Shown here piece after piece: positions 14,162-63,882 of a DNA stretch of 64,000 bases (positions are counted from its first letter, which is position 1; each line of letters begins with the position of its first letter). The DNA is from a virus (Duplodnaviria; Caudoviricetes). The stretch is from positions 96,001 to 160,000 of the IMG/VR virus record IMGVR_UViG_3300027804_002812. One strand, 5' to 3'. The notes beneath the pieces are model-generated. The model searched no databases. It was given only the letters and a program-made list of their open reading frames with translations, and was not told the origin of the DNA. The position numbers were made by a program, and so were the translations under genes.

Positions 14162-14952
14162 TGGATAGAATTATTGATTACAAAAATTTATCAAGTAAAA
14201 TCCAAGAATGGATTTTATCCTATGTAGTTAAAAACAATATTACAACTTTAGTTGTGGGAGTTTCTGGTGGTATTGATTCTGCGGTTGTATCAACGTTATG
14301 TGCAGAAACAGGACTGCCTACTTTAGTTCTTAATTTACCATTAAACTCATCCCAAAAGAACACAGAATTATCTGACAAACATATTTCGTTCTTATGTTCA
14401 AAATATGATAATGTTCATGGTTATACTATAGATTTATCAAAAACATTTCAAGAATTCAAATCTAATGTACTTTTTGAAAAAGAATTCTATTCTGAATTAG
14501 GATTTGCAAACACTAAATCAAGATTACGTATGATGGCGTTGTATCAAATCGCATCCTCAAGAAATGGGATTGTTGTTGGTACTGGAAACAAAGTTGAAGA
14601 TTTTGGAGTCGGATTTTACACTAAGTATGGAGATGGTGGAGTTGATATCTCTCCTATCGCAGACTTATATAAAACTGAAGTTAGAAATTTAGGTCGACAT
14701 TTAGGGGTAATTACTGAAATCATCAATGCGGAGCCTACTGATGGATTATGGGAAGATAACCGAGTGGATGAAGTTCAAATTGGAGCAACCTATGAAGAAC
14801 TTGAATGGGCGATGGAAAGAGGTGTAGCTAAACAAAATTACAGTGAAAAAGAATACAAGATTATTGAAACTTTTTTAAGTTTTAATAAAAAAAATAAACA
14901 TAAAATGGTTTCTATACCAATTTTTGATTTGAAAGAAAACGAAATTATATGA
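14161..14952 (+). CDS. nadE: NH3-dependent NAD+ synthetase
   Basis: VSGGIDSAV (PP-loop), NTKSRLRM, GTGNKVE, YTKYGDGGVDISPIADLYKTEV, PTDGLW. Confidence 0.9.
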   Translation: MDRIIDYKNLSSKIQEWILSYVVKNNITTLVVGVSGGIDSAVVSTLCAETGLPTLVLNLPLNSSQKNTELSDKHISFLCSKYDNVHGYTIDLSKTFQEFKSNVLFEKEFYSELGFANTKSRLRMMALYQIASSRNGIVVGTGNKVEDFGVGFYTKYGDGGVDISPIADLYKTEVRNLGRHLGVITEIINAEPTDGLWEDNRVDEVQIGATYEELEWAMERGVAKQNYSEKEYKIIETFLSFNKKNKHKMVSIPIFDLKENEII

Positions 14953-40663: not shown

Positions 40664-42454
40664 TTATCTCAATTCTCTCAAGTCGAATGTTCTAACTCCA
40701 TCAACTGTGATTCTACCGTAGAATCTGTTATTAACCATTTTCTTAGCGTATCTAGTCATGATACCTTTGATTGGTGTAAAGTTGAATGGATTGTACATTG
40801 TAGGAGTTAATTGTAGAGGTACATACGGTGCGTAGATGTAACCTGTGTCCAATAGAGAAGTTCCTTTGTGACCCATCAATACTTGGTTTGGTGGGAAGTA
40901 AGGGTCTCTATACACTTGGTAACGACCTGCTAATGTACCAACTCTTTCAATACCCATGTTGTACTGGTCCTGCTCAGGAGCCGCGTTTGATACGTGGAAG
41001 TATTCCAAGTCATCAAAGATAGCACTGATTTCAGAAGAAACAACGATCCAGTTAGCTCCACCTCTTAATGTAGATTTGTGGATTTGTGCTGAAATTTGGT
41101 TGATTGCAGTGATAAGAGTTTGGTTCCAATCTTTCTGAGTATAAGGAACTGCACTAGATCCTAATCTCTTCCATCCATTGTAATCCCATCTTAAGTTCCA
41201 AGCTGCTCCTTTTCTAAGGTCTCTCAAGATTTCTCTATCAATTTCAGCCGCAACTTGCTCAGATAACAATGCAGTTAATTCAGCTTCAGCGTCGATGTTG
41301 TGGAATGCCGCAACGTCCTGAGCCATTTCTGGAGACCACTGAGCTCTTAATTTTCTTTCAGTTACAGAAACTGTTACTGACATAAGGTCGAATGAAACTT
41401 CACCAATCTTATCTTCGAATTCCAAGTTCTTATAGATTCTATAAGTAGCTGTGAATGCGTTGTCTGCTGCAGTTGTTGAAGAGAATGTTGAACCTGTGTA
41501 ACCGTCTAATGAACCACCACAAGTAACACATACTGGTACTTGTAAATCAACTTCCAAGTAGATTTTACCTTCAGCGTCACATAAGTTGTCATACTGACCA
41601 CCATCTGTCTTACTGTTAGGGAATACCAACGTAGCGTTGTTGTTACCATACTGTACAATTCCTTTACCATATCTCTGAGTTACAACTCTGAATAAGTAAG
41701 GGTTTGAAGTGTTAGCAGAAGTGTAAACGTTTCCTGCTGCACCATAAACTGTCAAATCAGATAAGAATGCTTCGTTATCCATTGGTTGACCATCAGGACC
41801 GATTAATTTACCTGCTCCGTCAGATGCGAAACCTGACATAACTACTAATACTTTTCTGTAATCAGAAAGAGTATACGCTGAAGGAACCAATTGGTCGGCT
41901 AACCATGCAACAGTTCCAACTTGTGCTGTGATAGCAGAATATTGTCCTTTAGAGTAATCGAACAACCCAGGAGGATCCAAAGCTGGTTCGTTACCTTCGT
42001 AGAATCTATCGTAAAGATCCTTAGTGTTATTATAGTCATAACCACTGTTTGGAGTTTGACCAGCCGCAGCGTTTGGAGAACCATAAGGTGCGTAGTGCTC
42101 AGAAGTACCTGGTTGGTAAGACTGAATGTTAGGTACGAAGTAGAATAATTTACCGATAGGTAAGTTCATAGCTTGTACAGAAACGATATCGTTTGCTAAT
42201 AATTTAGAGAAAACTCTTCTTACGATAGGGAAAACAACTGTTTCAAATGCACCTGTGTCAGATGTAGATGATGCTTCGTTAATTAAGTGAGAAGCTTGGT
42301 TTTCATAAAGTTGAGCTACGTTCTCTCTCATGTGACCTTTAAGACCCTCAAGGAATCCTAATTTGTCCCATTTGTTGATTGTGTCTTCTTTAATAACTTT
42401 AAGGTGCTTAAGACCAATGTTACCAACAAGACCTGATTCTAATAATGCTCCCAT
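40664..42454 (-). CDS. gp23: T4-like major capsid protein
   Basis: VSVQAMNLPIGKLFY, RKLRAQWSPEMAQDVAAFHNIDAEAELTALLSEQVAAEIDREIL, YAPYVPL, GIMTRYA. Confidence 0.97.
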   Translation of the reverse strand: MGALLESGLVGNIGLKHLKVIKEDTINKWDKLGFLEGLKGHMRENVAQLYENQASHLINEASSTSDTGAFETVVFPIVRRVFSKLLANDIVSVQAMNLPIGKLFYFVPNIQSYQPGTSEHYAPYGSPNAAAGQTPNSGYDYNNTKDLYDRFYEGNEPALDPPGLFDYSKGQYSAITAQVGTVAWLADQLVPSAYTLSDYRKVLVVMSGFASDGAGKLIGPDGQPMDNEAFLSDLTVYGAAGNVYTSANTSNPYLFRVVTQRYGKGIVQYGNNNATLVFPNSKTDGGQYDNLCDAEGKIYLEVDLQVPVCVTCGGSLDGYTGSTFSSTTAADNAFTATYRIYKNLEFEDKIGEVSFDLMSVTVSVTERKLRAQWSPEMAQDVAAFHNIDAEAELTALLSEQVAAEIDREILRDLRKGAAWNLRWDYNGWKRLGSSAVPYTQKDWNQTLITAINQISAQIHKSTLRGGANWIVVSSEISAIFDDLEYFHVSNAAPEQDQYNMGIERVGTLAGRYQVYRDPYFPPNQVLMGHKGTSLLDTGYIYAPYVPLQLTPTMYNPFNFTPIKGIMTRYAKKMVNNRFYGRITVDGVRTFDLRELR

Positions 42455-54090: not shown

Positions 54091-55338
54091 TTAATTATTC
54101 AATCCTTGGAATCCTCCTAGTGATATTGCGTTTAGTTGAACAATAACTTCATCCCCATCTTCACTCGTCATAACAGAATAAGGCACAGTTGATCCGGATG
54201 GTGCAGTACCTCCACTAAATGAACCTAACATACCGATAGTATATTCATATTGTTGGTTTACTTCAATCACAAATCCAAGAGTTACACTTGGGGTAGGTGT
54301 GGAAGTTGGAGTTGACGCTGGAGTTCCTGTTGGTGTTGGTGTAACAGGTGCAGTTGCACTTGGTGATGCAGTGATACTTGGTGTTGGTGTTCTCGTAGCA
54401 GTATTTGTCGGTGTTGCGGTCTGTGTATTCGTAACAGTCGGTGTTGGAGTGTTAGTAGATGTGGAGGTGTTTGTAGGTGTTTGAGTTTGTGTTGCAGTAT
54501 TTGTAGGTGTTTGGGTTGTGGTTGGAGTTGGAGTTACCGCAGCAGTTCCAGTTTGAGTTGGTGTAGGTGTTTGAGTTGAGGTTGTGGTTGGAGTTGGAGT
54601 GTTTGATGCAGTAGGTGTTGGCGTAATGTCTCCAAGACATTCAACACAAGTATTCCACGGTCCGTTAAAAATTGTAACAGTTGCAGCTAATGGAGTTTCA
54701 AATCCATCACCAACTGTAAAACACTGATGACTTCCATCCGGTAATGATAAGTCATATATTTTATTATTAATTAAACTACCAATGAATTTGGCGTAAAATG
54801 CTTCTCCTCCCGCACATGGAGTTATAATATAATATGTAAACGGTAGTGGGGATTTTGTTGGTGTAACAGTATTAGTTGGGGTTACCGTAGGAGTTGACGT
54901 ATTTGTTGAAGTTACAGTTGGTGTTGGAGTTTTAGTCGCAGTATTTGTTGGTGTTGCAGTATTTGTTGGTGTTACAGTTGGTGTTGGGGTTTTAGTTGTC
55001 GTCTGAGTATTAGTAACAGTTTGAGTATTAGTTGGCGTTGCGGTATTCGTTGGAGTCTGTGTGTTGGTTGGAGTCTGTGTAGGAGTTGCAGTATTAGACG
55101 CAGTTGGTGTTGGCGTAACATCTCCAAGACATTCAACACAACTATTCCATGGCCCATTAAATATTGTTGCAGTCGCAGCTAAAGGAGTATCGATACCAGG
55201 TTCAATTGTATAACATCCGTTAGAACCCCCTCCGATGATTAAGTCGTAGATATCACCTACAATAAGATTTTCTTCTGACTTTATGTATAAAGTATTAGAA
55301 GAATTACAAGAAGACGCAATATAATAATTAAAAGCCAT
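54091..55338 (-). CDS. Thr/Pro-repeat (mucin-like) protein with duplicated Cys-containing domain
   Basis: Two copies of YYI..C...IYDL....C.T...TPLAAT.TIFNGPWN.CVECLGD, each followed by a long TPTPT linker. Confidence 0.85.
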   Translation of the reverse strand: MAFNYYIASSCNSSNTLYIKSEENLIVGDIYDLIIGGGSNGCYTIEPGIDTPLAATATIFNGPWNSCVECLGDVTPTPTASNTATPTQTPTNTQTPTNTATPTNTQTVTNTQTTTKTPTPTVTPTNTATPTNTATKTPTPTVTSTNTSTPTVTPTNTVTPTKSPLPFTYYIITPCAGGEAFYAKFIGSLINNKIYDLSLPDGSHQCFTVGDGFETPLAATVTIFNGPWNTCVECLGDITPTPTASNTPTPTTTSTQTPTPTQTGTAAVTPTPTTTQTPTNTATQTQTPTNTSTSTNTPTPTVTNTQTATPTNTATRTPTPSITASPSATAPVTPTPTGTPASTPTSTPTPSVTLGFVIEVNQQYEYTIGMLGSFSGGTAPSGSTVPYSVMTSEDGDEVIVQLNAISLGGFQGLNN

Positions 55339-56790: not shown

Positions 56791-57309
56791 TCAAACTGCG
56801 AATCTGTCGTAAGAAACTCGTAATTTAGGGTTTCTCAAAAGTGTTTTAATTCGTTCAATGTTAGATGCTAAGTCTCCCTCAATCCATTTCAGGACTAAAG
56901 TATTTGGATTACCTTCAAAAGGTACAAATCCATTATCCTCTGCAATTTTTTTCATTTCAGGGGTTTTATATGTAAAATACACGCCTCCATTATTCCGAAT
57001 CGACAAATTATATGTCTCAATCGCAACTTTTTTTGCCGTATCATAAAATTTATCCGTATAATCAATGTGACTATACGGTCTACCGTTAAATGTTCCAAAG
57101 TTATCTCTCGAAGGTTTTTTGAATGACACCAATGAGCTTTTAACCTTTCCGAAAGATTCTTCGTTTTCTAAAGATTTAGGTTCATCTTCTTTCTTTGGTT
57201 CAACTTTTTTTGTAGGGTCGAATTCGATGTTCAAATCACTTTGTTCCTTAATAACCCGTTTTACCAATCTAACCAAATCGGATTCGGTTAATCTTATTGT
57301 TTTTTTCAT
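56791..57309 (-). CDS. hypothetical protein with LTESDL leader
   Basis: MKKTIRLTESDLVRLVKRVIKEQ. Confidence 0.8.
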   Translation of the reverse strand: MKKTIRLTESDLVRLVKRVIKEQSDLNIEFDPTKKVEPKKEDEPKSLENEESFGKVKSSLVSFKKPSRDNFGTFNGRPYSHIDYTDKFYDTAKKVAIETYNLSIRNNGGVYFTYKTPEMKKIAEDNGFVPFEGNPNTLVLKWIEGDLASNIERIKTLLRNPKLRVSYDRFAV

Positions 57310-57314
57310 TTTAT

Positions 57315-57602
57315 TTATAACTTATGGTTTACAGTACAAAAAACTTTTTTAGTTGCACCTCTCAATAATCCATCAATCTTAAGGAGAGGAGTTTTTATTT
57401 GATTATGTACTTCTTGATATTCTTCAACTTCGGAATCTTTTGGAACGAGTTTTCCGGCCTTACAAACATCATTGTAATATTTTTCTTTAAGTTTTCTATC
57501 CAATTTTAAGAATCTTACTTTGGAGTCGGTTCCTGTTTCGGCGATTACTTTTTTAACCAATCTTGTTAAATCAGATTCGGTTAATCTTATAATTTTTTTC
57601 AT
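57315..57602 (-). CDS. hypothetical protein with LTESDL leader
   Basis: MKKIIRLTESDLTRLVKKVIAE, plus IDGLLRGAT, which resembles a PG-binding-1 'DG..G..T' remnant. Confidence 0.8.
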   Translation of the reverse strand: MKKIIRLTESDLTRLVKKVIAETGTDSKVRFLKLDRKLKEKYYNDVCKAGKLVPKDSEVEEYQEVHNQIKTPLLKIDGLLRGATKKVFCTVNHKL

Positions 57603-57624: not shown

Positions 57625-57663
57625 AAAAAAAAATCCCCACCTTTTGAGTGGGGATTTTTTTTT
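57625..57663. terminator. bidirectional-type intrinsic terminator
   Basis: AAAAAATCCCCAC-cttttga-GTGGGGATTTTTT. Confidence 0.85.
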
Positions 57664-58033
57664 ACTTTAGTTTTTTGAGTTGGTCTCGAATCTCGATTGA
57701 TTTTTCAAAATTTTGTTCTTCGATTGACTTTTTAAGTTCCTCTTCAAGTTTATCGATTTCCTTTTGGTTTGATTCCAACTTTTTAATTTGGTCTCTCAAT
57801 TCAACCGCTTTTTCAAAATCCTCATTTTCAATTGCGATTTCAAGTTGTTGTTTCAGATTTTTTGAAGTTGGGTTTGTTTTAGTGTTGTCGTAGTAATACG
57901 TAGTTATTTTCATTGTTCCATCTTCTGAAACTTTAGTTTGAGTTTTCCACTCACCGTTAGATGGGGTTAATTGATTGAACATTTCGTCGAATGTTCTAAA
58001 GATGTCGTTATAAGATCTTCTGTTACCAAACAT
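57662..58033 (-). CDS. tandem UVR (UvrB/UvrC motif) protein, McsA-like adaptor candidate
   Basis: LKQQLEIAIENEDFEKAVELRDQIKKLE and LEEELKKSIEEQNFEKSIEIRDQLKKLK. Confidence 0.85.
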   Translation of the reverse strand: MFGNRRSYNDIFRTFDEMFNQLTPSNGEWKTQTKVSEDGTMKITTYYYDNTKTNPTSKNLKQQLEIAIENEDFEKAVELRDQIKKLESNQKEIDKLEEELKKSIEEQNFEKSIEIRDQLKKLK

Positions 58034-58101
58034 AATTTTAGTTTTTTGTTTTAAGTTTATTTGTTATCTTTGTTCCAAGATTTATGCCGGTAGTGGTTCT
58101 A

Positions 58102-58114
58102 TGACAATATGTCA
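58102..58114. promoter_or_regulatory. palindromic operator TGACA-ATA-TGTCA
   Basis: Perfect 5-3-5 inverted repeat in the UVR/clpC divergent intergenic region. Confidence 0.6.
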
Positions 58115-58144
58115 GAAAAAGATATAATAAAAATAAATATTTCC

Positions 58145-58157
58145 TGACAATTTGTCA
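58145..58157. promoter_or_regulatory. palindromic operator TGACA-ATT-TGTCA
   Basis: Second copy, 43 bp from the first. Confidence 0.6.
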
Positions 58158-58212
58158 AATCATTTGGATAAGAATAAAAATTGTTATTACTTTGTAAAAA
58201 TTAAAAAACATT

Positions 58213-60225
58213 ATGAACGACTTAATGGACGACGAAGACAAAATGATGAGTAAAAAACAGAAGTCAGGAGATACCTCGACACCTGTTCTAGACAATTTCA
58301 GTAGAGATTTGAATAAACTTGCAGAGGCGGGTAAGTTGGACCCTGTCATCGGAAGAGACCGAGAGATTCTACGAATCGCACAAATTCTTTCCCGAAGAAA
58401 GAAAAATAATCCAATTATTCTTGGTGAACCTGGTTGTGGTAAAACTGCAATTGTTGAAGGTTTGGCGATGAAAATTGTCAATGGTGATTGTCCTCGTAAT
58501 CTTTTGGATAAAAGATTGGTTAACCTTGACCTAACTTCAGTTGTTGCTGGTACAAAGTATCGTGGACAATTTGAAGAAAGAATGAAGGTTATCATCGAAG
58601 AACTTCAGGCTAATCCTAACATCATCGTATTCATTGATGAAATTCATACTTTGGTTGGCTCAGGTAATTCTTCAGGTTCGATGGATGGTTCCAACATTTT
58701 CAAACCAGCACTATCTCGTGGTGAACTACAAGTAATCGGTGCAACCACTTTGGATGAGTTCAGAAAGAACATCGAAAAAGATGGGGCATTGGAACGTAGA
58801 TTCCAAAAAGTTATTGTTGACCCATCTACAGTGACTGAGACAATCCAAATTTTGAAGAATGTTCGGGACAAATACGAAACATATCACAAAGTGACTTATT
58901 CCGATGAAGTCATTGAAACTTGTGTTAAGTTGGCGGATAGATATATCACCGACCGTGAATTCCCTGACAAAGCATTCGACATCTTGGATGAAGTTGGTGC
59001 TAGAATGCAGACCGAACTTAAGGTTCCTGAGGCTATCGAAGAGTTGAAGCGTAAAGCTGCAGAACTTAAACAACAGAAGTTGGATGTAGTTAAAAAACAG
59101 AATTACGAACAAGCCGCACAACTCAGAGACAAAGAGAAAAAGTTGTTGGACAAATTGGACCAAGAAAAACAAAAATTCGAGGAACAAATGTCCAAAGACA
59201 AACAAAAGGTCGGAATGGATGATGTTTATGATGTTGTTTCAAACATGACTAAAATCCCTGTTAACAAAATGTCTACGGATGATACCAAAGCGTTGTTGAA
59301 CTTGGACAAACACATTGTTGGAACTGTCATTGGTCAGGATGCCGCGGTTATCAAGGTTGCAAAATCTATCAAGAGAAACCGACTAGGTATCAAAGATCCA
59401 AATCGTCCGATTGGTTCATTCGTTTTCTTGGGTTCAACAGGTGTTGGTAAAACTCACTTAGCAAAACAACTTGCAAAGGAAATGTTTGGAAGTGAGGACG
59501 CGCTAATCCGTGTGGATATGTCTGAGTACCAAGAGAAACATACCGTATCCAAATTGGTTGGAGCACCTCCAGGCTATGTTGGATACGAAGAAGGTGGATT
59601 GTTGACTGAGAAAGTTAAGAACAAGCCTTACTCTGTTATCTTGTTTGATGAGGTTGAGAAAGCTCACAAAGATGTATTCACCGTATTACTTCAAATCTTG
59701 GACGATGGTCACGTTACGGATAGTTTGGGTAGAAAGATTAACTTCAAGAATACCCTAATTATCTTAACATCAAATCTCGGAGTTAAAAAACTACAAGACT
59801 TCGGAACTGGTATTGGATTCTCATCAAGTACCTATGGTAACGAAGAGGCGAAGAAAGAAATCTTGATGAAAGAAATGAAGAATTTCTTTTCTCCTGAGTT
59901 TATCAACCGTATCGATGACACCATTGTTTTCAATTCTCTATCTCAAGAGGATATCAAGAAAATCACCGACATCGAACTTAAGAAGTTGATGAAGCGTCTT
60001 GACGAAATGAAGTATAAGATTACTTATGATGAATCACTTTTGAATTACCTCTCAAAAATCGGATATGATGAGGTATACGGTGCAAGACCACTCAAGAGAG
60101 CGATTCAGGATAAAGTTGAAGACTTATTATCTGAAGAAGTTCTGACCGACAAAATTATAGTAGGAAAAACCTACGTGATTAAAGTCGAAGATGAAGTAGT
60201 CAAAGTAGTCAAGAAAGGTCGGTAA
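58213..60225 (+). CDS. clpC: ClpC-type AAA+ ATPase lacking the N-terminal Clp-repeat domain
   Basis: [24 protein letters not shown]-type M domain, [30 protein letters not shown] ClpP-docking loop, YGARPL. Confidence 0.92.
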
Positions 60226-60228
60226 ATT

Positions 60229-60255
60229 AAAAAGGGGATAATTCCCCTTTTTTTT
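60229..60255 (+). terminator. intrinsic terminator after clpC
   Basis: AAAAGGGG-ataatt-CCCCTTTT plus a T tract. Confidence 0.8.
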
Positions 60256-60267: not shown

Positions 60268-60876
60268 ATGAGTAATTTTTCCCGACTATTAGACAAATTC
60301 AAAAATTCATTCCCAAAAGACTTACAATCAAAAGTTGATGTAATTGAAAATTTTGTTGTGGGATATATTCAAGAAAATGACCTCAATGTAAAGTTCTTGA
60401 ATTCATGTTCCGCAGGGTTCAAAGGAGTTAGGACAAGAGACCAAATTATTATTTGTTCTCCAATCAGTATGGAAACCATAGGAGACTTTTTATATACCAT
60501 ATTTCACGAAATCAGGCATGAGCAACAGATTAGAGATTTGAAAATGTTAAATCCTTTAACGGATTTTGATTTAGAGGATTTCGAGGCTCTTTACGAACAA
60601 TACTGGAATATGGAGTTGGATGCCGATAAATTCGCAAAAGAAATGGTGGCAAAACTGGTAATCAAATTGGGGATTCCAATCGATATTGCAAAAAAATTAT
60701 TTTCGTTGTCACCATACGTTCAGCAATATCCAACCATGTCAAACATGGTTCGTGGAGGTATTCAACAAATTATTAATGACATTAAGAGAATAAAAAAATC
60801 GGGTGGAGAATATACTGATATTCAAGACCACCCGGTAGTACAAAGACACATCGATAAGTTAGAGGATTTTATTTAA
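60268..60876 (+). CDS. putative zincin metallopeptidase (HExxH)
   Basis: TIFHEIRHEQQ and downstream ELDADKFA (ImmA/IrrE-like pattern). Confidence 0.6.
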   Translation: MSNFSRLLDKFKNSFPKDLQSKVDVIENFVVGYIQENDLNVKFLNSCSAGFKGVRTRDQIIICSPISMETIGDFLYTIFHEIRHEQQIRDLKMLNPLTDFDLEDFEALYEQYWNMELDADKFAKEMVAKLVIKLGIPIDIAKKLFSLSPYVQQYPTMSNMVRGGIQQIINDIKRIKKSGGEYTDIQDHPVVQRHIDKLEDFI

Positions 60877-63465: not shown

Positions 63466-63882
63466 GGGGGTGAAATAGAATTGATTAACGTTTGTATAAT
63501 CAATGGGCACGTAGTCAGAATTCATCTATGACTTGAATCTACGGTGAAGAAAGTAAACGGCAATACTCTTGCTAAGATGTCTGCTTTAGGTTTAACTAGA
63601 GAAGCATCTGTTGTAACTGCTTAAGAAGTAGATACAACGTCAGGTCGAATGGGCATATAACCTAGGAACAGAAGCCCTCCAAGGTGTGATACCACCCGAA
63701 GCGTATCAAAAGGTCACGTTCAGAGGACTACCTTAGTAAAAGTGAACTCGACACAGTTGTTGGTAACGATGTCAAAATAGGAACCATCTATTTCGGAAGG
63801 TATCACAAACCTTGGCCTAAACGTGTAGTCCATTTTTGATATGGCGGGTAAGACTGGGAGGCGGTATCCCACACCTCCACCA
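63466..63882 (+). ncRNA. ssrA: tmRNA (one-piece), tag GNTLAKMSALGLTREASVVTA*
   Basis: Acceptor stem GGGGGTG/CACCTCC with G3:U70, discriminator A and encoded CCA. T-stem TGGGA/TCCCA, helix CACGT/ACGTG, and an internal ORF at 63559-63624 ending in Ala-stop. Confidence 0.9.

Follow-up and report, generated by a model that had tools for sequence, protein, structure and literature searches.

Introduction

ClpC unfoldases are normally controlled via the N domain, be it by MecA, by McsB and phospho-arginine, or by cyclic-peptide antibiotics. In S. aureus, the N domain steadies the resting state by anchoring to the M domains, so that it keeps the enzyme off jointly with the M-domain tip, and excess ClpC activity is toxic (PMC12583610). 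Both M-M and MecA contacts of ClpC are mediated by its Uvr motif and F436 (PMC6274998), and a ClpC engineered to lack the N domain degrades proteins proficiently, SsrA-tagged GFP among them, once the F436 contacts between M domains are broken (PMC12583610). MecA itself joins a client-binding N-terminal part to a ClpC-binding C-terminal part that touches F436.

Here we describe a phage locus, contained in a 64,000-nucleotide stretch of DNA (the window), that encodes a ClpC-type unfoldase and, divergently, a small protein with two UVR motifs. The unfoldase resembles S. aureus and Bacillus ClpC in its two AAA+ rings, its short Uvr-motif M domain with an aromatic residue at the tip, and its ClpP-docking loop. 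Unlike in ClpC-MecA systems, its N domain is missing naturally and clade-wide, and the genome lacks MecA, ClpS and McsB. The small protein is not related to MecA, and the M domain would be its sole point of action on ClpC; the layout that we propose for it is that of MecA.

Proteins with UVR motifs are known from other Clp systems. Chloroplast CLPC1 of plants, which bears a UVR motif itself, traps several proteins (CLPF, UVR2-4, EXE1/2) that have such a motif in common (PMC8889267). Unlike the phage protein, these partners have one UVR motif plus other domains, for example DUF151; none has tandem UVR motifs behind an N terminus akin to small heat-shock proteins (sHSPs), and a UVR-UVR contact is unproven for plants as well. 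McsA, the activator of the McsB arginine kinase, has a C-terminal coiled-coil/UVR region that is the best NCBIfam match of the phage protein, which lacks the zinc-binding domains of McsA. sHSPs, finally, work with Hsp100/Hsp70 disaggregases, and in 20 relatives of the phage an Hsp20 gene occupies the same position and shares the control region; the protein studied here differs from sHSPs in that most of the alpha-crystallin domain is missing and two UVR hairpins form its end.

Phage Clp systems are already known, and the present locus is a variant among them. Phages have been reported to carry Clp proteases, adaptors, sHSPs and tmRNAs (PMC12484599; PMC7824862; PMC6873191), including ClpXP and tmRNA in phage G, scattered ClpP, ClpS, ClpA, ClpX and Hsp20 in jumbo phages, and Gp53 of SPO1. 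These known parts are of the ClpX or ClpA type or are adaptors of host ClpC, unlike the N-less ClpC considered here.

Results

An N-domain-less ClpC in a jumbo phage

The unfoldase gene (58213-60225, plus strand) encodes 670 amino acids and is assigned to the ClpC-type Hsp100 proteins by Pfam, PHROG and alignment to S. aureus ClpC. Pfam recognises AAA (69-196), AAA_lid_9, UVR, AAA_2 (398-569, 1e-68) and ClpB_D2-small domains. Clp_N (PF02861) is matched neither in this protein nor anywhere in the 326-kb genome, so that the protein is ClpC-derived rather than a canonical ClpC. Residues 14-656 align in one stretch with residues 151-794 of S. aureus ClpC (6em8), which places the start of the phage gene within the linker that follows the N domain. 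The match to the phage family phrog_4871 does not begin before position 157 of the 764 in the profile. Among proteins of solved structure, the ClpCs of S. aureus and B. subtilis score best (733 bits). Identity as a ClpB disaggregase was considered and rejected, because alignments to ClpB structures break into two stretches at the M domain, the ClpP loop is present, and the TIGR03346 score of 840 lies below the cut-off of 1232.

Both AAA+ modules carry Walker A/B and pore-loop motifs (GYVGY among the motifs read in translation), and the short M domain contains a Uvr motif at residues 280-311 (PF02151, 22.1 bits versus a cut-off of 21.5), its tip residue Tyr298 aligning with S. aureus F436. The motif is kept in all 80 relatives, with Y or F always at the tip. 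The counterpart of the AGF ClpP loop of S. aureus ClpC is GIGF at residues 533-536, and a G[IVL]GF loop is found in 79 out of 79 relatives whose sequence extends to it.

ClpC proteins of the phage clade all measure 664-691 amino acids and lack the N domain throughout. Their closest cellular relatives are Bacteroidota ClpCs (55-60% identity), which span about 840-880 amino acids wherever the contig covers the whole gene, and 78 of the 80 nearest of these carry an FGxG[VI]GF loop. The DNA belongs to a 326-kb IMG/VR virus record from freshwater with a CheckV completeness of 100%, hence a phage genome, and the host is probably a Bacteroidota bacterium.

A tandem-UVR protein across a shared control region

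Divergently from clpC, the minus strand of 57662-58033 encodes a protein of 123 amino acids that matches PF02151 in two stretches (1.3e-15). It begins with a helix and a beta-hairpin, behind which come two UVR hairpins (about 58-92 and 93-123); an AlphaFold2 model with a mean pLDDT of 68 places helices at 9-21, 57-69, 73-105 and 109-122 and strands at 28-35 and 42-49. The UVR motifs resemble the tip of the ClpC M domain, aligning with M-domain residues 282-325 at 39% identity over 51 residues. The original prediction had described the locus correctly: a phage ClpC that starts at AAA-1 without Clp-N repeats, with a UVR-type M domain and a GIGF loop, facing across 179 bp a 123-residue protein in which two UVR motifs follow a short N-terminal segment. 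Its observations are confirmed, and its interpretation is partly supported, as detailed below.

The family comprises 242 cluster representatives at E<=1e-10, and viral sequences make up 100% of each of its three nearest Atlas clusters; a tblastn search of phage records returned a single weak match. Automatic annotation at JGI names relatives of the protein 'McsA'. NCBIfam returns weak UvrB, UvrC and McsA C-terminal matches, the best being McsA (47.9 bits) with UvrB at 30.2 bits. An McsA identity is rejected on the cut-off of 210 bits, on the lack of McsB (PF00217) in the genome, and on the lack of any cysteine in the 123 residues, which implies that zinc-binding domains are missing. Fold searches with the model (PDB, AlphaFold DB clusters) gave weak matches only; most were to other proteins with a UVR domain, and McsA/McsB came up at E 1.1. 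A search of the genome for MecA (PF05389), ClpS (PF02617), McsB, Hsp20 and Hsp70 found none of them.

The N-terminal 45 or so residues of the family appear to resemble the N terminus of sHSPs. Aligned with a phage sHSP profile, the family profile scores 25.1, versus 9.4 +/- 1.9 for 200 column shuffles; the match is confined to the N-terminal ~45 columns and, with an hhalign probability of 20-27%, is weak in absolute terms. The alpha-crystallin domain (PF00011) is not matched by Pfam in the UVR protein, most of the domain being missing, and an Hsp20 identity is rejected on this ground.

The two genes are separated by a divergent control region of 179 bp (58034-58212). It contains two 13-bp palindromes, TGACAATATGTCA at 58102-58114 and TGACAATTTGTCA at 58145-58157, as well as a TTACTTTG element ahead of clpC (58187-58194). 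Palindromes of the form TGACA-N3-TGTCA occur four times in the genome, versus 0.34 expected, the other two lying inside genes. Among related loci the palindrome is present in 35 of 39 with a UVR gene, in 11 of 20 with an sHSP gene and in none of 19 others, and never elsewhere in those loci; it travels with the occupancy of the position beside clpC. Its identity as a host clpC operator was discarded, since the 570 kb of DNA surrounding 74 clpC genes of Bacteroidota contain no copy. Both genes are represented in RNA libraries: contigs span 58217-60234 for clpC and, with zero mismatches, 57722-58021 for the UVR gene. Contigs from four libraries lie over the two genes and leave the spacer uncovered; being assembled contigs, they may include DNA carry-over.

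The divergent position is exchanged between candidate cofactor genes

Co-occurrence across phages had been put forward as a check on a dedicated unfoldase-adaptor pair. We surveyed the divergent position beside clpC (the slot) in 78 related phage loci with clpC and found a tandem-UVR gene in 39, Hsp20 in 20, DnaK in one and no occupant in 18, with at least 13 switches of state on the ClpC tree. The predicted linkage therefore stands for half of the loci, in which the divergent arrangement is kept at UVR protein identities down to 34%, more than chance would explain; in the other loci the gene is replaced or the slot is empty, and the pair is not a dedicated one. Three sister slot proteins were tested for Hsp20 identity and gave 4.6e-14, 3.2e-14 and 2.2e-12. 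For two remote members of this UVR family, P0234 and P0270, the available flanking DNA contains no ClpC.

The exchange can be followed at the level of DNA. In two of five pairs of UVR and sHSP loci, the alignment extends from clpC to the start codon of the slot gene; beyond the slot gene, homology clearly resumes in one of these pairs, and the second shows a short weak match. This pattern indicates a clean swap of one open reading frame for another under one control region. Since the UVR gene can be exchanged for Hsp20 or DnaK or be absent altogether, ClpC is not dependent on it. Loci with an empty slot or an sHSP gene conserve ClpC and its M-domain motif just as well, which implies that the slot cofactor is dispensable. 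The M domain hardly varies, and no covariation with slot content can be seen.

The phage encodes its own ClpP

The original prediction noted that the window holds no clpP, and supposed that the phage borrows host ClpP, with defence factors or virion assembly intermediates as conceivable substrates. The former is literally so but misleading: a clpP gene lies 13.8 kb past the window end and 17.6 kb downstream of clpC (G000:173781-174479 in the coordinates of the full genome), so that borrowing is not needed. Its product matches PF00574 with 188 bits over positions 5-181 of 182 and the NCBIfam ClpP model with 236 bits over 2-220 of 221, versus 64 bits for the head-maturation model. Ser-His-Asp triad motifs (GMAASMG, LHQ and RD) are read in the translation of what is a full-length ClpP fold, and both family scores and neighbours speak against a prohead protease. 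A search of five other related genome records found clpP in 3 of them, and 11 of 18 related fragments have it too, which amounts to most relatives in the clade. The complete sister genome G003 has no clpP and keeps the ClpP loop of its ClpC, which makes the use of host ClpP plausible in that lineage.

A tmRNA-like gene, divergent in sequence, lies 3.2 kb downstream of clpC (63466-63882, plus strand). An E-value scan matches RF00023 over its full length with 38.4 bits (gathering score 47; E 8e-14); ARAGORN and an Rfam scan at the gathering threshold do not call it. In four related genomes (G001-G004), a tmRNA scoring 50.6-90.3 bits is found a few kb downstream of clpC, and the arrangement is thus syntenic.

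Closer to clpC, 42 bp downstream on the same strand, a gene at 60268-60876 (plus strand) encodes a 202-residue protein with an HExxH motif (HEIRH). It is found downstream of clpC in 34 relatives, closer ones only, and is a possible operon partner. The protein has only a weak match to DUF3920 (0.009) and none in NCBIfam and PHROG searches, and its nearest Atlas clusters are viral and unnamed.

Discussion

From an evolutionary perspective, the phage clade represents a natural experiment in which the N domain of ClpC has been deleted whereas the ClpP loop and the M-domain tip have been retained, and in which the sole candidate regulator is a small protein made of M-domain-tip look-alikes. We envision that the locus forms part of a phage Clp proteolysis and proteostasis module, composed of the N-less ClpC, the phage ClpP, the tmRNA and a divergent, co-regulated cofactor slot, here filled by a chimeric UVR protein that acts via the M domain. 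The ClpC would have been captured from Bacteroidota and have lost its N domain since. Taken as a whole, we regard this account as standing an even chance of being correct. The gene-for-gene exchange with sHSPs argues that the UVR protein is probably an optional new helper of ClpC and not a device for borrowing a host protease. Judging from sequence, we infer that this optional cofactor combines an sHSP-like client arm with two hairpins that mimic the tip of the ClpC M domain.

How might such a cofactor work? Conceivably, a ClpC without N domain is restrained solely by head-to-head contacts of its M domains via the tip residue Tyr298. The two UVR hairpins might dock on the M-domain tip, compete with M-M contacts and thereby free active hexamers that engage ClpP, while the N-terminal arm would deliver misfolded or aggregated clients. 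Chains tagged by tmRNA, whose handling requires no N domain, would be a likely second class of substrates. Of this account, the domain anatomy, the phage ClpP, the cassette exchange with sHSP genes, the common control region and the representation of both genes in RNA libraries are shown, whereas docking on the M domain, an activating effect and the nature of the clients are inferences. A prediction of the complex between ClpC residues 1-400 and the UVR protein (family alignments A3 and A1) scored 0.14, the mark being 0.32, and weighs neither for nor against a contact. If the UVR protein does bind, it would be the first adaptor to act on ClpC via the M domain alone.

Alternatively, the UVR protein may be a stress-induced, holdase-like protein that acts alone or with host chaperones and never contacts ClpC, the position beside clpC being merely an insertion site for stress genes with a shared regulator. 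Its exchange with sHSPs, and once with DnaK, would fit, as both act without ClpC in cells, and so would the unchanged ClpC at empty-slot loci and the two distant family members without ClpC nearby. However, the only recognisable domain of the protein is the motif of the ClpC M-domain tip, and it lacks most of the alpha-crystallin domain that sHSPs require for assembly. Moreover, all 60 occupied slots beside the Hsp100 gene carry Hsp20, DnaK or the UVR protein, which argues for functional coupling, and we consider an independent holdase rather unlikely. A contact of the opposite sign is also conceivable: having two motifs, the protein would be bivalent and might bridge M domains and steady the resting state, standing in in trans for the lost N domain until a stress or late-infection signal arrives. 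This would accord with the anchoring of the S. aureus N domain to M domains and the toxicity of over-active ClpC (PMC12583610), and with the retained aromatic residue at the tip. Yet an sHSP, for which the UVR protein is interchanged, is a deliverer or holder of clients rather than an unfoldase repressor, and 18 relatives combine an N-less ClpC with an empty slot; repression thus seems improbable to us.

The remaining alternatives direct the protein, or the protease, at the host. As a decoy, it might cap the UVR domains of UvrB or UvrC and so block excision repair, or those of the full-length host ClpC. The UVR domains of UvrB and UvrC pair together (cited in PMC6274998), the NCBIfam matches to UvrB, UvrC and the McsA C terminus point the same way, if weakly, and SPO1 Gp53 is an adaptor-like phage protein for host ClpC (PMC6873191). 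The UVR motif is, however, nearer to the ClpC/McsA type than to UvrB in its bit scores, the gene shares its control region with the phage's own clpC, and the genes that alternate with it in the slot encode chaperones and not DNA-repair proteins. We therefore judge a decoy very improbable. Least credible of all is the original prediction taken to the letter, in which unfoldase and adaptor form an obligate pair and employ host ClpP to degrade selected defence proteins of the host: it could draw on the ClpP loop kept in G003, but the genome at hand encodes ClpP, the pairing with the UVR gene is not obligate, and nothing indicates defence factors as substrates.

Returning to an optional cofactor that acts on the M domain, the boldest version is also the more tentative one. 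The protein would then found a new class of Hsp100 cofactors, in which an sHSP arm joined to two M-domain tips switches on an N-less ClpC purely by M-domain competition, within a self-contained tmRNA-ClpC-ClpP system that tags, unfolds and degrades proteins and whose specificity module is swapped as a cassette between UVR chimera, sHSP and DnaK. We hold this to be possible, if on the doubtful side; it would provide an example of an sHSP rebuilt into an unfoldase adaptor. More generally, the findings indicate that jumbo phages of Bacteroidota bring a full proteolysis set of tmRNA, unfoldase and peptidase and do not rely on the host. Among the published phage Clp systems that we compared, we found no N-less ClpC that combines a ClpP loop with a UVR/sHSP cofactor slot. 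The uncultured 642-kb phage LR756502 encodes an N-less ClpC with no UVR neighbour, together with two full and one partial ClpP matches.

A truncated ClpC opposite a tandem-UVR protein

The clpC gene (58213-60225, + strand; 670 aa) belongs to a 326,291-bp IMG/VR virus record (G000; G+C ~33%, CheckV completeness 100%), of which the window covers bases 96001-160000, and freshwater metagenomes of several studies contain DNA near-identical to this source. Its product comprises, by Pfam, AAA, AAA_lid_9, a UVR motif at 280-311, AAA_2 and ClpB_D2-small; Clp_N was detected neither in this protein nor anywhere in the genome, and the match to the phage family phrog_4871 begins only at profile position 157 of 764. 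Its top relatives of solved structure are S. aureus ClpC (733 bits) and B. subtilis ClpC (723 bits). Because residues 14-656 align with 151-794 of the S. aureus protein, the phage gene begins in the linker past the N domain. Tyr298 aligns with F436 at the M-domain tip, and GIGF (533-536) with the AGF ClpP loop. The anatomy read in the original prediction, namely a ClpC without Clp_N and with a UVR-type M domain and a GIGF loop, is present throughout, as are the divergent 123-aa protein with two UVR motifs (57662-58033, - strand; PF02151, 1.3e-15) and the 179-bp spacer (58034-58212).

The 80 nearest cellular ClpC relatives all derive from Bacteroidota-type genomes (55-60% identity), and 78 of them carry an FGxG[VI]GF loop; a small tandem-UVR ORF was found within 3 kb of clpC in none of the 80. 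Where the contig contains the entire gene they measure ~840-880 aa; among the 80 phage relatives every complete protein measures 664-691 aa, so the phage clade shares a derived loss of the N domain. An N-less ClpC of 707 aa with a GVGF loop is also encoded by a 642-kb uncultured phage (LR756502.1, locus L088, 2926-5049), whose genome gives ClpP matches, two of them full and one partial; no UVR motifs were seen among the neighbours of this ClpC.

Downstream of clpC, 42 bp past its end, lies a gene for a 202-aa HExxH (HEIRH) protein (60268-60876, + strand), which has no family assignment, finds viral clusters nearest in the Atlas and is conserved at this place only among closer relatives. Possibly it is a metallopeptidase that shares an operon with clpC.

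Exchange of chaperone-type genes beside clpC

From a pool of no fewer than 598 viral loci we compared the best 80 (ClpC identity 68-99%) and could classify the gene divergently adjoining clpC in the 78 that include upstream DNA. In 39 loci this slot is occupied by a tandem-UVR protein whose gene invariably runs on the opposite strand and lies 43-212 bp away from where clpC is predicted to start; its identity falls as low as 34%. Hsp20 small heat-shock proteins (sHSPs) take its place in 20 loci (PF00011 4.6e-14, 3.2e-14 and 2.2e-12 in the three tested) and DnaK in one (861 bits); in the remaining 18 the slot is empty, and the next backbone gene (110-aa family, KTSC protein, others) directly follows. 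The slot state changed at least 13 times on the ClpC tree, whose starred branches require at least seven changes for UVR and at least seven for sHSP, and sister pairs differ in their occupants: L048 (UVR) and L049 (sHSP), L075 (UVR) and L068 (sHSP), L080 (UVR) and L078 (DnaK). Chaperone-type genes thus repeatedly fill one place adjoining an Hsp100 gene. In the complete sHSP-type sister genome G001 no tandem-UVR gene is found elsewhere, and Hsp20 is absent from the UVR-type genomes G000 and G002. The proposal of a dedicated unfoldase-adaptor pair therefore holds for linkage and is too strong for dedication: given the varied occupants, UVR gene and clpC are linked yet not obligate partners.

DNA alignments of five UVR/sHSP locus pairs indicate that the two genes replace each other as cassettes behind a common control region. 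In two pairs the alignment runs from clpC across the entire spacer up to the start codon of the slot gene (L075 4-318 with L068 4-317, slot genes starting at 312 and 311; L035 4-320 with L012 4-316, both starting at 320); in the other three it stops 65-140 bases before that codon. Past the slot gene homology clearly returns in L075/L068, and a short, weaker match only is seen in L035/L012. The spacer of the window holds two copies of the 13-bp palindrome TGACA-N3-TGTCA (58102-58114 and 58145-58157), which recurs in 35 of 39 UVR loci, 11 of 20 sHSP loci and none of 19 others, and nowhere outside the spacer in those 6-14 kb loci. The whole genome has four copies versus 0.34 expected, the two non-spacer copies lying inside genes; the 570 kb surrounding 74 clpC genes of Bacteroidota contain none.

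Metatranscriptome contigs from four freshwater libraries cover the UVR gene (57722-58041, with zero mismatch in one contig over 57722-58021) and clpC (58217-60234), and none from these libraries covers spacer positions 58070-58183. This fits two separate transcripts, although such contigs are compatible with DNA carry-over and give no expression levels.

The phage encodes its own ClpP

It had been suggested that the phage borrows host ClpP, which is wrong here: its own genome carries a gene for a 232-aa ClpP (G000:C1:173781-174479; locus L001, 1348-2046) outside the window, 13.8 kb beyond its end and 17.6 kb from clpC on the downstream side, so that borrowing would be unnecessary for this phage. 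PF00574 matches over the full length (188 bits), NCBIfam gives 236 bits with its ClpP model versus 64 with the ClpP-related head-maturation model, and Ser, His and Asp motifs can all be recognised. The neighbouring ORF shows, read by eye, HNH-endonuclease motifs, and is not a head gene. The protein is a true ClpP. The element TAACTTTG, which resembles the Bacteroidota -7 promoter consensus, precedes clpP, and clpC has TTACTTTG at equal distance.

The sister genomes G001, G002 and G004 likewise encode ClpP, as do 11 of 18 additional related fragments; it was found in no fragment of the second ClpC clade (L051-L084). The complete 321-kb sister genome G003 (locus L065), with direct terminal repeats, encodes an N-less ClpC with an intact G[IV]GF loop and a tmRNA, and lacks clpP, Hsp20 and the UVR protein. 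Use of host ClpP is plausible for the G003 lineage only. In the window, a divergent tmRNA-like gene (63466-63882, + strand) lies 3.2 kb downstream of clpC; it matches RF00023 over its full length at 38.4 bits (E 8e-14), below the gathering score, and ARAGORN makes no call there. Syntenic tmRNAs above the threshold (50.6-90.3 bits) follow clpC within a few kb in four sister genomes, the ClpP-less G003 among them.

How might the UVR protein act on ClpC?

Residues 57-107 of the UVR protein share 39% identity with ClpC M-domain residues 282-325, and both of its UVR motifs match one segment of the M-domain tip, [DN]-F-E-x-[AS]-x-x-[LI]-R-D. An AlphaFold2 model built with the family alignment (mean pLDDT 68, ~80 in the helical half) predicts a helix at 9-21, a beta-hairpin (28-35 and 42-49) and C-terminal helices at 57-69, 73-105 and 109-122. 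Matching the UVR family profile (28 sequences) to that of the phage sHSPs (19 sequences) aligned the N-terminal 44 columns only, scoring 25.1 versus 9.4 +/- 1.9 for 200 column-shuffled controls (maximum 16.8) and 13.3 for the reversed profile, with an hhalign probability of only 20-27%; the two N-terminal arms probably share a common origin.

In S. aureus ClpC, the N domain and head-to-head M-M contacts through F436 jointly keep the resting state; deleting the N domain alone leaves the enzyme inactive, and adding F436A to this deletion yields an enzyme that, together with ClpP, proficiently degrades SsrA-tagged GFP (PMC12583610; PMC6274998). The phage ClpC matches the delta-N form with its tip intact. 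We envision that the UVR protein, carrying two tip look-alikes, would compete with the ClpC M-M contacts, and that its sHSP-like arm could hold clients. Possibly the sign is opposite and the UVR protein clamps the resting state of ClpC. A role as ClpC cofactor is plausible and better grounded now than when first proposed; plant CLPC1, which traps UVR-domain proteins, offers a loose precedent (PMC8889267).

Phage-borne ClpP, ClpX, ClpA, ClpS, Hsp20 and tmRNA are already known (PMC7824862; PMC12484599), as is an adaptor-like phage protein directed at host ClpC (PMC6873191). An N-less ClpC with a ClpP loop and a UVR/sHSP cofactor slot was not found in the literature compared. The genome encodes neither MecA nor ClpS. 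The automatic JGI name McsA was rejected for the UVR protein, since it is cysteine-free, reaches 47.9 bits where the cut-off is 210 and occurs in a genome lacking McsB.

The UVR family numbers 242 cluster representatives (E<=1e-10), and the three nearest ESM Atlas clusters among those listed are 100% viral. For two distant members, P0234 and P0270, the available flanking DNA holds no ClpC. The genome of G002 (locus L021) has two more small frames with single UVR motifs (14388-14477 and 42254-42310), far away from clpC; the slot is thus not the only site of UVR-motif proteins. Beyond the UVR gene, two adjacent genes (56791-57309 and 57315-57602, - strand) share the N-terminal motif MKK-IRLTESDL-VKRVI; they suggest a family of small genes that is mobile or expanding, with members at varying places in the related loci L067, L076 and L081. 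Further along, a 415-aa protein (54091-55338, - strand) contains a Cys-containing module twice, with long Thr-Pro-rich linkers between.
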